A DNA stretch of 37,301 bases. It comes from an uncultured Candidatus Bathyarchaeia archaeon (GTDB lineage: Archaea > Thermoproteota > Bathyarchaeia > Bathyarchaeales > DTEX01). The notes under the pieces are model-generated. The model was not told the DNA's origin and did not search any database. It saw nothing but the letters and a program-made list of their open reading frames with translations. This document shows, piece after piece, positions 9,182 through 13,316 of the stretch. Position 1 is the stretch's first letter. Each line of letters starts with the position of its first letter. A program made the position numbers and the translations under genes. Location of the stretch: the NCBI GenBank assembly GCA_964411115.1, contig CAYPJR010000003.1:1-37301 (forward strand), given 5' to 3'.

Positions 9182-12004
9182 TTAAAGCTCGATGGTTATA
9201 TAGTGAAGCTCAATTACTCCTTCAATTGATACCATAATCCCAATATTCATTTTTCCATCAGCCCTCCACATAAATATTCTTGAAGCCTGATATTCCCCGC
9301 ATTTCTCCAGAAACTCCATAATTAAATTTTGAACTTTAACCCAATCCGCCTCAGAAGTAAACTTGACGCTGCCCTCAATGAATGATACATGTGGGTTGAG
9401 ACTTTCAGGCTTTAAAACCTTGAACCCTGCCTCCTCAATGATTCTAACCAGCCTAGCGATCCTCTCCTCTTCGCTTAATCCCGGCGTTGGAGGAAACTCG
9501 ACGCCTGCGATCCTAATCAAGAATCCTCTAAAGCTATCCTCAACTGTGGAACCTAAGCCGACATAGTATTCGCCGGTGAAGTCTGCACCTATAGTTGCAA
9601 TCGTCCCGATCTCAGTGACAACCCCGCCTCCCGGCGCTGTATAAACAGGTATGAAGAAGACATCGTATCCGCCGATTCTATAAAAGATCTGGTTTCCAAT
9701 ACGCGGGTTTCTTAGGAGGGTCTTCAGCGTTGCGAAGCTCGGGTTCCTTTCTAAAGCCTCATTTATCGCGGATGGTCCGAGTAGCTTTTTCTCCGCTCCC
9801 AGCGGCACTTTATAGAAGATCATTTCGCCAGTGTAGGGATAATCGTTTCTAACAATGATGTAGCCGGCGAGGTTTTCCCCTAATGCTCCCCGCAACTCTA
9901 GGGATAATAGTCCCACAAACTCGGGCTTCTCAAATCCATGCGGCTGAGCGATAATATAGTACGTGTCTATGCCATCAGGCACCTTATAAAATTCCTTGGC
10001 AGCAATAAATGCGGATGGCTCTGTTACGTGAAATATGTTGTACATAGAAACCCTCCACTCAAAGAGTTCCTCAGGGTATCTCAGCTGCGTCTTCAGCCAC
10101 TCCGGAACCTCCGTAGATATATATTCAGCGTAGACCGTTTTGAAAAGTTGGCTGAAGAAGTCGCTTCCAGTGATTATTAAATGTATATCTCCATGGTAAA
10201 CATTTATTAAAGCGTATCCAACAAGCCTCCCAAAGGGGTTCCCATCACTCCAGGGCACATTTTCAGCGTTCAGAAAAACCATGAGGGGCATTGCCCAGAA
10301 TGTTTGTTCACCATCGGTTACAGGCCATATGTCTATTCGCTGCCCTCTAATCTCATATTTAAAGTAGGGAAAAAGCAGCTTCATACGTTCATGAATGTCC
10401 CTGTATCTAATGATATGCATTGTTGTTGTGGGATAAGAGAACATAAAGTTAGGTTCAAAAATCCAGCTTAATGGCGGCGGAACATCTATCCCGCCTCTGC
10501 CATCATAAAAGTAGCCTCCAATTTCATCGCTAGAGGTTCTCTCAGCCGGATAAGCGATCCAAGTTTCCTGGAAAAGCCCGCCTTCACCATAATAGATTCT
10601 TCTTTGAGGAAAGAATTTAGTAGCTTCCACTATCCTTCCATTATGAGCGTCAAGCATGAGAAAACCATTAGGCACATGCGTGTACACGAAATGTAACGCG
10701 TACCATCTGTCTTCAGGCCGAACCGTCTGAGGCGCAATCAAGTCCATTGAGGCGCTCCAGTAAAGGGTGTCATTGAAGCGCAAAATATCTGCGTCGGAGA
10801 AGTTTATGTACGGTATTAAACCTATCTCCGGCCTAAGCTTGTCGAACGAAGCCTGCTGATCCCAGAGGCGCACCCTCTCCAGGAGTCCCCTATTCTGTAT
10901 AATGAAAGCATCGATCTGATCGGGAGAAATAGATGTTGAACCAAATTCATACGGGATCTCCCTGATATTTTCAAGGTCGGCGAGATGCTGATTCACAGAG
11001 ATCAGCTGAGCAATATATGGGCCGAGCATATCTAGCTTTCTAACGTCTGCAATGCTATTATTAAGTAAAATTGCTGATGCCATAACCAGGCTGATCGCGG
11101 CTAAAACTGCTAAGCGGAGATAAATCTCTCGGCGGCTGAAATGAACCTCAGGTTTTCTCCAATCCGCTATTGCGAAGGCGATAAAAGCGGCGCTGATGGA
11201 GAGAAATCCCAAAATCAGGTATTTAGTATTATAATCTATGAAAGATGCAAAGAACATGGTGAACATATACCATAGGGTGAAGACCGCTACTAGCATCTGC
11301 ATGGTCGGTATGAACCTTCTTAAACTGGGCGTCTCTAGATTCCATAGATACGCAGCAACGAAGGGCACAATTATCCGAATAATATGTGTTAATGCTACCA
11401 GAAGCGCAAGGCGCAGCCATAAAGATCTAAGTAAAGGCGGAATTAACAATGTTAAAACTGGTATTAAAGGGGAAACCTTTAATTCAGCGTAGGATAAATC
11501 GATCGGCGGCGTTATAAAGGGGAGGCTGAAGATTTGAGGAAGCATCTCAACGCCTGAGCTCCAGCCGCGCATGATTGCATCTATGGCCATGCCGAACATG
11601 ATGTTAATGAAAAAGACCGATCCGATGAGGGATTTAGTGATTTGCCAAACGAAAAATTTTACGGGGGACATTTTAAAGCTTTCAAAGTCAATCCATACCG
11701 GAGAAATTCTCTCCATGTCTCCCCCTGAACGGATAAATTTAACTGTTAAATTGATGAGGTACCAGATTATGGATCTCCTATTTTTGAAGTCTAACCTAAA
11801 AAAGGTGAAGGATGCAAGCGTGATCCCGCCTAATAAGCCGAAATATATAGGTTTTAAGAATAAATCTCCGAATTCTTGAACGTTAAGCCAGAAAACCACG
11901 ATTTCACGGCTGAGAAAAAGAATTAGGACAACAATGATGATTGCTAGGGTCAAAAGCGCCCAGCGGATTTGACGCGTTCCGGAGCCTCTCTCAACACCAC
12001 TCAT
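9182..12004 (-). CDS. UPF0182 family membrane protein
   Basis: Multi-TM N-terminal third, RLWD, HFVYTH..GF, RIYYGE, RYPEELF, YYII and LLGP motifs. Start may be 12019. Confidence 0.85.
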   Translation of the reverse strand: MSGVERGSGTRQIRWALLTLAIIIVVLILFLSREIVVFWLNVQEFGDLFLKPIYFGLLGGITLASFTFFRLDFKNRRSIIWYLINLTVKFIRSGGDMERISPVWIDFESFKMSPVKFFVWQITKSLIGSVFFINIMFGMAIDAIMRGWSSGVEMLPQIFSLPFITPPIDLSYAELKVSPLIPVLTLLIPPLLRSLWLRLALLVALTHIIRIIVPFVAAYLWNLETPSLRRFIPTMQMLVAVFTLWYMFTMFFASFIDYNTKYLILGFLSISAAFIAFAIADWRKPEVHFSRREIYLRLAVLAAISLVMASAILLNNSIADVRKLDMLGPYIAQLISVNQHLADLENIREIPYEFGSTSISPDQIDAFIIQNRGLLERVRLWDQQASFDKLRPEIGLIPYINFSDADILRFNDTLYWSASMDLIAPQTVRPEDRWYALHFVYTHVPNGFLMLDAHNGRIVEATKFFPQRRIYYGEGGLFQETWIAYPAERTSSDEIGGYFYDGRGGIDVPPPLSWIFEPNFMFSYPTTTMHIIRYRDIHERMKLLFPYFKYEIRGQRIDIWPVTDGEQTFWAMPLMVFLNAENVPWSDGNPFGRLVGYALINVYHGDIHLIITGSDFFSQLFKTVYAEYISTEVPEWLKTQLRYPEELFEWRVSMYNIFHVTEPSAFIAAKEFYKVPDGIDTYYIIAQPHGFEKPEFVGLLSLELRGALGENLAGYIIVRNDYPYTGEMIFYKVPLGAEKKLLGPSAINEALERNPSFATLKTLLRNPRIGNQIFYRIGGYDVFFIPVYTAPGGGVVTEIGTIATIGADFTGEYYVGLGSTVEDSFRGFLIRIAGVEFPPTPGLSEEERIARLVRIIEEAGFKVLKPESLNPHVSFIEGSVKFTSEADWVKVQNLIMEFLEKCGEYQASRIFMWRADGKMNIGIMVSIEGVIELHYITIEL

Positions 12005-12253
12005 GGTCAAACAATCCATGCGTTAAACTTTTAAAAGAGCCCGAATGCTCTAATCCATAATGGTCTTCATCTCAACTTAAACATTTCTACATTTTCCATT
12101 GCCTGGAGTAAAACGCAGCGCGCTGGCTCCGTAAGGTTTATTTTAACCCGGGCAATATAATAATTTCTTGGAGGAAAGCAGACCTGGAAATGTTAGCACT
12201 TAGGTACGTAGCAGCCGCTAATGTTTCCACTCTACCCCTTGGGGGTAGAGCCT

Positions 12254-12835
12254 ATGCGGAGGACACGAATAGCATTCATAGCTATCTTAAGCACTATGAG
12301 TTCTCTAGGGATGGGTCTGCTTGGCTCGATATATCCCATATTTGTTCTTAACCGTTTCTCCGCATCTCTGCTAGATGTGGGAATGCTGGTAACAATTTTC
12401 GGGCTTGTCTCAGCGTTCTTTAAGGCTCCGGCCGGTAAACTTGTCGATATGTATGGGAAGGAAAGGGTCTTCTTCGTCGGGGTTATATTGAGCGCCGCAG
12501 GCACCTTCGCCTATTTATTGGCTTTTGACATCATACATCTCTATCTCATAGAGTTCTTTTTTGGAATATCCTATGCGCTTCAAGGACCTTCACGCCTAGC
12601 ATTAATTATGGAGATAAGCGAGCAGGGTAAGAAGGGCTTAACGCTTGGAATTTTTGAATCCGCATATGATATCGCCGGGTCAATAGCCGCCCTAATCGCC
12701 GCGTTGATAGTGAGCTACTTAGGTTTTGAACCGTTATTCTTTTTATGTTCAGGATGTTATATGGCGACAGGAATTTTAATTTTAAAACTTGGCAAATTTA
12801 ATATTAGCAAGCCTCTTTCTTATTCACGGCAATAA
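12254..12835 (+). CDS. half-size (6-TM) MFS-fold transporter protein
   Basis: MFS motif A GKLVDMYGKE and six hydrophobic segments. ATG 12254 follows a GGGGG RBS-like tract. Confidence 0.75.
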   Translation: MRRTRIAFIAILSTMSSLGMGLLGSIYPIFVLNRFSASLLDVGMLVTIFGLVSAFFKAPAGKLVDMYGKERVFFVGVILSAAGTFAYLLAFDIIHLYLIEFFFGISYALQGPSRLALIMEISEQGKKGLTLGIFESAYDIAGSIAALIAALIVSYLGFEPLFFLCSGCYMATGILILKLGKFNISKPLSYSRQ

Positions 12836-12938
12836 TTTCTAAGCGTCGCGCCGATAAATATTTAGATATCGCCATCATTTAAATTCTCCAAAAATCATTA
12901 AAATAATAAATATTTAATTATTATTTGATGGTGATGTT

Positions 12939-13316
12939 ATGTCCAAAACAGATGAGGAAATATTGCAGGTTTTGAAGGAAATTAAGACGCTGCTGGAACC
13001 TAAACCATCTCCTCCACCGCCGCCACCGCCAAAAGGACTTTGGAGGGAATTCTTAGACTTCATATCGAAATATAAGGTTCTAGGCATGGCTGTAGCTTTC
13101 ATCCTTGGCTTATATTTAGGTGCTCTCGTTAAAGCCCTTGTTGATGATTTAATCATGCCGATAATAACATTGATCCTTCCAAATGTGGAGTGGGAGGTTC
13201 TAACGGTCGGTCCCTTCCGCATAGGACACTTTATAGGCGCTTTAATAACGTTCATCCTAGTAGCCTTTGTGGTTTTCCTAATAGTGAAAGCAACAAAAAG
13301 ATTGGGTATAGAGTGA
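12939..13316 (+). CDS. mscL: large-conductance mechanosensitive channel MscL family, atypical domain order
   Basis: EFLDF..Y.VLGMAVAFILG, LVDDLIMPII, GHFIGALITFILVAFVVFLIVK. GGTGA RBS upstream and a T-rich tract downstream. Confidence 0.9.
   Translation: MSKTDEEILQVLKEIKTLLEPKPSPPPPPPPKGLWREFLDFISKYKVLGMAVAFILGLYLGALVKALVDDLIMPIITLILPNVEWEVLTVGPFRIGHFIGALITFILVAFVVFLIVKATKRLGIE

Follow-up and report, generated by a model that had tools for sequence, protein, structure and literature searches.

An archaeal MscL family protein with a conserved helix and proline-rich spacer ahead of S1

MscL serves as the textbook example of channel gating by membrane tension. What its cytoplasmic bundle does is still disputed, the proposals being a sieve, a pentamer stabiliser or a modulator of gating (PMC5722894, PMC6167328). 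In bacterial MscL (E. coli and M. tuberculosis; 2oar), the core of each subunit, consisting of the interfacial helix S1, a first transmembrane helix (TM1), an outer loop and a second transmembrane helix (TM2), is followed by a Pro/Ala-rich tether and one short amphipathic cytoplasmic helix, S3, with an acidic cap and an L..IR.LL core. According to Anishkin et al. 2003 (PMC2217331), the S3 consensus LLxEIRDLLK has a counterpart in xLQDVRELLR of COMP, and both are five-fold coiled-coil cores carrying a D/E-R salt-bridge ring. An archaeal case, MaMscL of Methanosarcina acetivorans, has no C-terminal domain (PMC6167328). Here we describe an MscL gene at positions 12939..13316 on the forward strand of a 37,301-nucleotide stretch of DNA (hereafter the window) from an uncultured Candidatus Bathyarchaeia archaeon (GCA_964411115.1, contig CAYPJR010000003.1). 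The S1-TM1-loop-TM2 core of its product is that of MscL, S3 is absent, and an amphipathic helix with an L..I[RK].LL pattern stands on a Pro-rich spacer at the N-terminus. On the strength of this pattern we lean towards the view that the protein is a functional, tension-gated archaeal MscL, an emergency valve, which would carry its cytoplasmic oligomerisation helix at the N- instead of the C-terminus.

The MscL gene and its amino-terminal module

The gene starts with ATG and comprises 125 codons and a stop. A Shine-Dalgarno-like word, GGTGAT, can be read directly 3 nt 5' of the ATG (12930..12935, forward strand); we take it to pair with the 3' end of 16S rRNA, and AT-rich (TATA-like) DNA lies further upstream. 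The protein begins with MSKTDEEILQVLKEIKTLLEPKPSPPPPPPPKG, continues with LWREFLDF and ends in VKATKRLGIE*, giving the reading order MSKTDEEILQVLKEIKTLLE, PKPSPPPPPPPK, G-LWREFLDF and, finally, VKATKRLGIE. An earlier first-pass annotation, made from the letters of the window, had quoted this open reading frame (ORF), its N-terminal segment and its end right after TM2, and all three read exactly as it stated. Membership of the MscL family is indicated by a match to Pfam PF01741 (E 9.5e-19, 68.4 bits against a cut-off of 27.4), in which residues 34-120 align to profile positions 1-96 of 123, and positions 97-123, the part describing the C-terminal helix, are unmatched. All eight NCBIfam equivalog models listed (TIGR00220 and PRK models) score below their own cut-offs, the best reaching 57.3 and 55.2 bits against cut-offs of 159 and 71, which is consistent with the database name 'MscL family protein'. 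No other MscL match occurs in this 1.53-Mb, 99%-complete genome.

An AlphaFold2 monomer built on 24 relatives (mean predicted local distance difference test score, pLDDT, 81) gives the topology of solved MscLs, preceded by the N-terminal module. The acidic cap and amphipathic helix occupy residues 2-20 (12942..12998; modelled as helix over 2-19, pLDDT about 72), followed by the Pro-rich spacer PKPSPPPPPPPK at residues 21-32 (12999..13034; non-helical, pLDDT about 56, within a modelled coil at 20-33). S1 covers residues 34-44 (13038..13070), where the Pfam match begins and where E37, F38, D40 and F41 are invariant; the pore-lining TM1 covers residues 46-79 (13074..13175), aligned to MaMscL; the outer loop with a short beta hairpin covers residues 80-94 (13176..13220); and TM2 covers residues 95-121 (13221..13301). 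All of these features lie on the forward strand. As TM2 ends at residue 121 in the model, the protein stops four residues past it, with the tail LGIE and the stop codon at 13302..13316 in place of a C-terminal helix. An S3 helix with LLxEIRDLLK, typical of bacterial MscLs but not universal among them, is thus absent from the window MscL, and so are the RKKEE-type cluster and everything else past TM2; the first-pass annotation had also described an MscL without its C-terminal helix, and the model and the unmatched Pfam positions agree with it.

Among solved structures the archaeal MaMscL fusion (4y7k/4y7j; E 1.8e-19 over residues 31-118) comes closest, followed by the MscLs of S. aureus, E. coli and M. 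tuberculosis. Foldseek with the modelled monomer likewise places 4y7k at the top (probability 1.00, E 5.8e-5) and recovers 2oar with probability 0.98, the TM-scores being only about 0.4, which one would expect of a lone subunit. MaMscL begins directly at S1 (GLFSEF after the tag), whereas the window MscL has 32 extra N-terminal residues. Compared with bacterial MscL, the archaeal helix is N-terminal and tied to S1 rather than to TM2, and its tether comes after the helix instead of before it; if bundled, the helix would run toward the membrane, where the bacterial one runs away from it. The helix has an amphipathic a/d/e seam (I8a, V11d, L12e, I15a, L18d, L19e) with a hydrophobic moment of 0.49, a mean hydrophobicity of 0.02 and a charge of -3. 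The core L..[IV]R[DE]LL that goes with such a seam in COMP and S3 is found here as L12-K-E-I-K-T-L-L19, with K in place of R.

The whole module is translated and is under purifying selection across many archaeal phyla. There is no ATG, GTG or TTG between helix and S1, the last in-frame candidates being TTG codons 9 and 12, which lie within the helix. A homologue search returned 3551 sequences at E <= 0.001, of which the best 120 are 69-100% identical, mostly with 97-100% query coverage; in 24 relatives spanning this identity range, L12, I15, L18, L19, P21, K22, P29, P30, K32 and G33 are invariant. A wider protein search (2875 representatives, E <= 0.001) finds the module again in the best 150, down to about 37-45% identity. 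Among 23 diverse members (37-82% identity) the only invariant columns in the whole protein are I15, in the N-terminal helix, A53 and P74, while L9, E11 and L12 are conserved in at least 90%. In a set of 68 sequences with an anchored helix (67 loci plus the window), the helix has a proportion of nonsynonymous differences (pN) of 0.25, close to the 0.24 of S1; either transmembrane helix has 0.16 and the loop 0.30. The ratio of nonsynonymous to synonymous proportions (pN/pS) is 0.26, with the qualification that pS is saturated and that pattern-based anchoring biases the helix somewhat toward conservation. Taken together, the conservation, the lack of a downstream start and the pN values lead us to conclude that the cell makes the module and that the constraint on it is about that on S1.

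That the real start lies downstream, so that the helix would be an artefact of annotation and never made, is a reading to which we give almost no credence. One database gene call (P0007) has 117 amino acids, a length that would fit a start at TTG codon 9. Against this, the DNA between spacer and S1 lacks a start codon both in the window and in all 78 complete related loci, the nearest candidates being the TTG Leu codons inside the helix; the Shine-Dalgarno-like word stands ahead of the ATG at 12939; and the amino acids are conserved across phyla with a pN/pS of 0.26. We therefore reject it. The first-pass annotation had itself named non-conservation of the helix and translation from a downstream start as observations that would tell against its reading: the former is contradicted by the invariant L12, I15, L18 and L19, and the latter is disfavoured. 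An antisense ORF of 113 codons with a Gly run (12914..13255, reverse strand) is a shadow of the Pro codons, and we reject it as a gene since such frames occur, in 52 loci, only as MscL shadows.

The distribution of the module is broad. At least 556 places in species-representative genomes encode a relative, and the best 80 loci, which we examined, are all archaeal by record title. They comprise 41 loci from Bathyarchaeota, -ia or -ales, ten from Nitrososphaer- groups, three from Thermoproteota, one from Crenarchaeota and nine from Asgard archaea (six Prometh-, two Thor- and one Odinarchaeota). Brockarchaeota, Methanomethylic-, Hadarchae- and Thermoplasmata contribute two each, Nezhaarchaeota, Wolframiiraptor, Thermococci and Woesearchaeota one each, and the remaining four are from other archaea. 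Two of the 80 are cut by a contig end, and of the 78 complete loci 77 carry the module when the printed rows are read by eye; an automatic pattern scored 75 of the 80, L052 and L059 being module-positive by eye. The motif L..I[RK].[LIVM][LIVMF] is present in 74 of the 78 (L..IR.LL in 56, L..IK.LL in 16). Within the organism's own class, a match was found in 100 of 201 genomes and in 69 of the 121 of good quality, nearly all beginning at query residue 1-6. The sole complete locus lacking the module (L048) has an open but unrelated frame 5' of S1 with no nearby start codon, and may be a broken gene or an assembly join.

Three loci of one family in the same class (L082, L084 and L085, in genomes G058, G146 and G179) encode 117-residue MscLs with neither helix, having only a short Lys-rich MDKMEKSSEKKKG ahead of S1, so bare and N-helix forms coexist inside the class. 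MaMscL already shows that an archaeal MscL can lack its C-terminal domain; an N-terminal helix-spacer arrangement is not something we found described. A search of the full-text literature, with most subscription journals and supplements lying outside it, returned no paper reporting either an N-terminal helix or a Pro spacer for MscL, archaeal or other, and its one 'proline-rich' match concerned TRP channels; this agrees with the first-pass annotation, which was aware of no description. Databases name such proteins only 'MscL family protein'. The module marks a natural MscL form present in hundreds of archaeal species, and the bare MaMscL, which supplies the usual picture of archaeal MscL, is not representative of most archaeal lineages sampled here.

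Likeness to the bacterial S3 helix and origin of the module

For comparison with S3 we used 179 carriers of the N-terminal module and 136 MscLs with a C-terminal extension of at least 20 residues and a short N-terminal end, both sets picked by pattern from 385 proteins fetched. The consensus strings of carriers and C-extension MscLs are MSKDEEILEELKEIRALLEPKPAPPPPPPPK and KKKEEAAPAAPPEPSAEEKLLAEIRDLLKKQAA respectively, with a shared core L.EIR.LL. When the N-module profile is aligned with hhalign to a full-length bacterial profile, the one match falls on S3 (P 0.0083, probability 4.8%); with the helix columns alone the match has P 0.0094 and a score of 14.5, against 8.4 +/- 1.8 for 200 column shuffles, of which one reaches it, and 7.3 for a reversed helix. 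The converse comparison, in which 90 bacterial helices supplied the profile and 132 full-length archaeal proteins the target, also gives a single match, L~EIRDlL on LkkIRelL, corresponding to window residues 12-19 (score 18.4, P 6.5e-4, probability 27.6%; 4 of 200 shuffles). Over both directions the case for homology of a moved segment accordingly spans P values of 6.5e-4 to 9e-3, 8-16 columns and probabilities of 5-28%. The motif L..IR.LL, which was defined after both consensus strings had been seen, occurs in 78 of the 179 N-modules and 74 of the 136 C-extensions, and 0 times in 453,028 residues of this genome's ORFs.

A number of observations weigh against an oligomerisation helix of the S3 kind at the N-terminus. 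None of 15 isolated N-modules matches PF01741 at E <= 10 in a Pfam scan, and a hidden Markov model (HMM) of the N-helix has a median of -1.1 bits on bacterial MscLs, a value reached by 12% of 1617 background ORFs, though shuffled or reversed tails fall below it at -3.6 bits. The location of the hhalign match alone means little, since 131 of 200 shuffles also have their best match in the C-terminal region, and both profile sets were chosen by amphipathic-helix patterns, so that similarity is favoured from the outset. The window copy has K16 rather than R (LKEIKTLL). The helix is short (about 16-18 residues) and, like the spacer, is modelled with low confidence (AlphaFold2 pLDDT about 72 and 56), and the five-helix bundle would have to be taken from sequence pattern alone. 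Finally, forms with neither helix exist or work, namely MaMscL and the 117-residue MscLs of the same class, so a channel as such can do without the helix. A search of the ESM Atlas with residues 1-33 gave no usable match. We conclude that the likeness of the N-helix to S3 is real at roughly the 1-in-100 level, over eight columns only. The resemblance that the first-pass annotation had seen is borne out by the profile comparison it had proposed: hhalign links these two segments in both directions, but only across eight columns, and the Pfam scan and the HMM do not second it.

The same annotation had gone further and spoken of circular permutation, with the bundle helix and its Pro linker transposed to the N-terminus. 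As worded, permutation is not supported, because bacterial MscL has the order TM2-linker-helix, and a cyclic shift would place linker before helix ahead of S1, whereas the order observed, helix-linker-S1, is a mirror arrangement; at the least, a new spacer had to arise. Nor did the 385 proteins fetched include intermediates such as duplicated or fused genes or forms with both helices, 0 of the 179 carriers having a C-terminal extension of 15 residues or more. A longer protein sharing residues 1-44 was not found either, which is weak evidence. What stands of the transposition is the presence of an S3-like helix and a spacer at the N-terminus.

In a tree of 110 cores (94 columns), for which the bootstrap is not fully settled, 19 carriers fall in one clade with support 100/95. 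Four short rows also lie inside it, two of which look incomplete (P0243 is on a 509-base contig and P0151 has a 130-residue cluster mate). The other carriers are placed near helix-less archaeal forms, and the bacterial C-helix forms make up a separate, well-supported group, with deep nodes unresolved. An approximately unbiased (AU) test does not reject a single clade for all 23 carriers (log-likelihood difference 5.3, p 0.416), the group having been named after the tree was seen, and a single origin is thus possible. The pentamerising five-stranded coiled coil of COMP bears on how such an origin should be read. Its xLQDVRELLR, with inward hydrophobics and a D/E-R salt-bridge ring (PMC2217331), resembles the archaeal LkkIRelL, even though COMP, a eukaryotic protein of the extracellular space likened here by published motif only, is unrelated and its coiled coil is much longer. 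As the same motif occurs in an unrelated protein, it can arise by convergence, and by this analogy it would argue more for a shared mode of assembly than for shared descent. The module most probably has a single archaeal origin, and the data do not discriminate between convergence towards a shared pentamerisation motif and relocation of S3 as its source.

True relocation would mean that the N-helix is homologous to bacterial S3 and moved in an ancestor of these archaeal MscLs, the Pro spacer having evolved later. The reciprocal hhalign matches fall only on these two segments (P 6.5e-4 to 9e-3; 1 of 200 and 4 of 200 shuffles), the consensus strings show an acidic cap ([DE]E before the helix) and a Pro/Ala-rich tether for either helix, and L..IR.LL is shared by 78 of 179 N-modules and 74 of 136 C-extensions with 0 occurrences in the background. 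We nevertheless consider relocation unlikely. Only eight columns align, the motif was defined with both consensus sequences in view, and COMP makes an independent origin possible; duplication followed by permutation would give spacer-helix-S1 and not helix-spacer-S1, no carrier among the 179 retains a C-terminal extension of 15 residues or more, and the N-helix and bacterial C-helix clades stand apart, with helix-less forms between them and deep nodes unresolved. A bolder version, which we hold to be similarly doubtful, is that S3 switched ends, from the C- to the N-terminus, in the founding lineage of a large archaeal radiation (TACK, Asgard and several euryarchaeal lines). Bundle and rigid polyproline struts on S1 would then work mechanically, setting the gating threshold or limiting expansion of the pore. 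If true, this would be a solution to tension sensing unlike that of the bacterial channel, perhaps suited to archaeal ether-lipid membranes.

Proposed working of the channel and competing functions

With an oligomerisation helix on the N-terminal side, the pentamer can be pictured as follows. The five N-terminal helices would pack as a parallel coiled coil of the COMP or S3 kind on the five-fold axis below the pore, and stiff polyproline-II struts of roughly 30-37 A would suspend this bundle from the five S1 helices, at their outer ends. At 3.1 A per residue, 9-12 residues would span about 28-37 A (an estimate, not a measurement on a model), which should let a strut extend from the axis as far as the outer end of S1. 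The N-termini of the helices would point away from the membrane, leaving room for the DUF1508 domains that some relatives carry; the position of these domains, N-terminal to the helix, fits a bundle in this orientation.

Such a bundle could take on the roles proposed for bacterial S3, holding the pentamer together and acting as a pre-filter. Bacterial S3 is proposed to stay assembled during gating, to serve as a sieve and to stabilise the pentamer (PMC5722894, PMC2217331), an E124/R126/D127 belt keeping it assembled (PMC5722894). A bundle attached to S1 may in addition tune the gating threshold: S1 is reported to be essential for force transmission, and an N-terminal tag alters its dynamics (PMC4917966), from which it follows that a bundle on S1 could influence gating. 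These archaeal channels would thus offer natural experiments on whether a bundle acts alike on the other end of the subunit, whether length and stiffness of the struts set the threshold, and whether the LLxEIRDLL-type motif is a portable signature of pentamerisation.

Other functions for the module can be envisaged. In one, the helix and/or the polyproline tract would be a docking arm, binding some other protein of the cytoplasm, be it a regulator, a scaffold or a cytoskeletal element, and thereby tethering the channel or gating it via S1. Polyproline tracts are classical ligand motifs, the N-terminus tolerates added domains (two DUF1508 domains in P0127 and P0143, a C2H2 finger in P0178), and a computational study reportedly proposes that MscL can be opened by pulling on the N-terminus (PMC5578686). 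We think docking improbable all the same, given that the pattern of the helix is a known pattern of five-fold self-assembly, that an E/K-rich sequence replaces the Pro tract in some Asgard forms, and that no neighbour gene is conserved across the 80 loci, a radical-SAM-like gene recurring in 11 only. Alternatively, the helix might lie on the membrane surface and sense the lipid interface like an extra S1. It is amphipathic, with the hydrophobic moment of 0.49 given above, but its mean hydrophobicity of 0.02 and net charge of -3 are ill suited to this role, its acidic face is conserved, and a stiff spacer of 9-12 residues, rich in Pro, keeps it off S1; for these reasons we reject this very unlikely reading.

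It might also be the Pro codons that matter most. Polyproline stalls ribosomes, and an early stall would make MscL synthesis dependent on aIF5A, with the helix incidental. PPP occurs in 50 of the 78 complete loci and PPPPP or longer in 16, but the other 28 lack PPP altogether, Asgard forms exist with no Pro run, and the helix is more conserved than the spacer, making this a most improbable explanation.

Variants of the module and genomic setting

Pro makes up 61% of the spacer, which measures 7-13 residues in the 78 rows parsed, most often 12 (31 rows), 9 (25) or 11 (12). A length of 0 came out for one row, and the two contig-end loci may be among those parsed. The step of three between the modes at 9 and 12 equals one polyproline-II turn, which may simply reflect relatedness. 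In the Asgard variants P0188 (Lokiarchaeota) and P0191 (Asgard group) an E/K-rich stretch replaces the Pro run, and AlphaFold2 models it as a continuation of the helix (residues 6-33). All carriers end 3-4 residues past TM2. In 68 of the 80 related loci the distance from the G of S1 to the C-terminus is 93 residues, and 69 supplied the codon set for the pN comparison; the commonest tail is WGIE (41 of the loci with this standard 93-residue core). N-helix forms share a conserved [W/I/L]G[IV]E tail, and helix-less forms have a Lys-rich end such as KKVTKK. That the tail Trp might sit beside the polyproline strut as a contact site is pure speculation.

Further additions to the bare MscL core are found among the proteins fetched, in the form of C-terminal zinc ribbons, an N-terminal C2H2 finger and two DUF1508 domains ahead of the N-helix. 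The DUF1508 fusions consist of two DUF1508 (YegP-like) domains, a linker, the N-helix, the Pro spacer and MscL, and comprise P0127 (287 residues), P0143 (360 residues, from a cluster of 10 members that are all 360 residues long) and P0133 (196 residues, partial). The C2H2-type finger of P0178 (130 residues; zf-C2H2_jaz, E 1.9e-5) stands ahead of S1. In P0171, P0199, P0249, P0251, P0252 and P0260, and also in P0246, a zinc-ribbon-like CxxC...CxxC tail, with weak Pfam zinc-ribbon matches, takes the place of S3 at the C-terminus. A bacterial subgroup (P0217, P0228, P0237 and relatives) has the C-terminal motif NAEQNA[RK][IM]IELLE[QK]I instead of LLxEIRDLL and forms its own clade (99*). P0197 (270 residues) runs from the N-helix through spacer and S1 to the start of TM1 and then into unrelated, partly repetitive sequence (WSWSWSWS), and looks like a frameshift or a chimeric contig.

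Near-identical DNA comes mainly from hot-spring metagenome runs of several studies, with no RNA dataset among those listed. In the window the MscL gene has as neighbours a half-size gene of the major facilitator superfamily (MFS), a radical-SAM gene, a HAD hydrolase and a UPF0182 membrane protein; across the 80 loci no neighbour gene is conserved, and the next real family, radical-SAM-like, is present in only 11. The MFS ORF lies directly upstream of MscL (12221-12835, forward strand; 204 residues) and matches positions 2-172 only of the 347 in MFS_1, and so may be a half-size or truncated major-facilitator gene. The UPF0182 gene (9182-12019, reverse strand) encodes a 945-residue membrane protein of this uncharacterised family (PF03699, E 6.8e-32).

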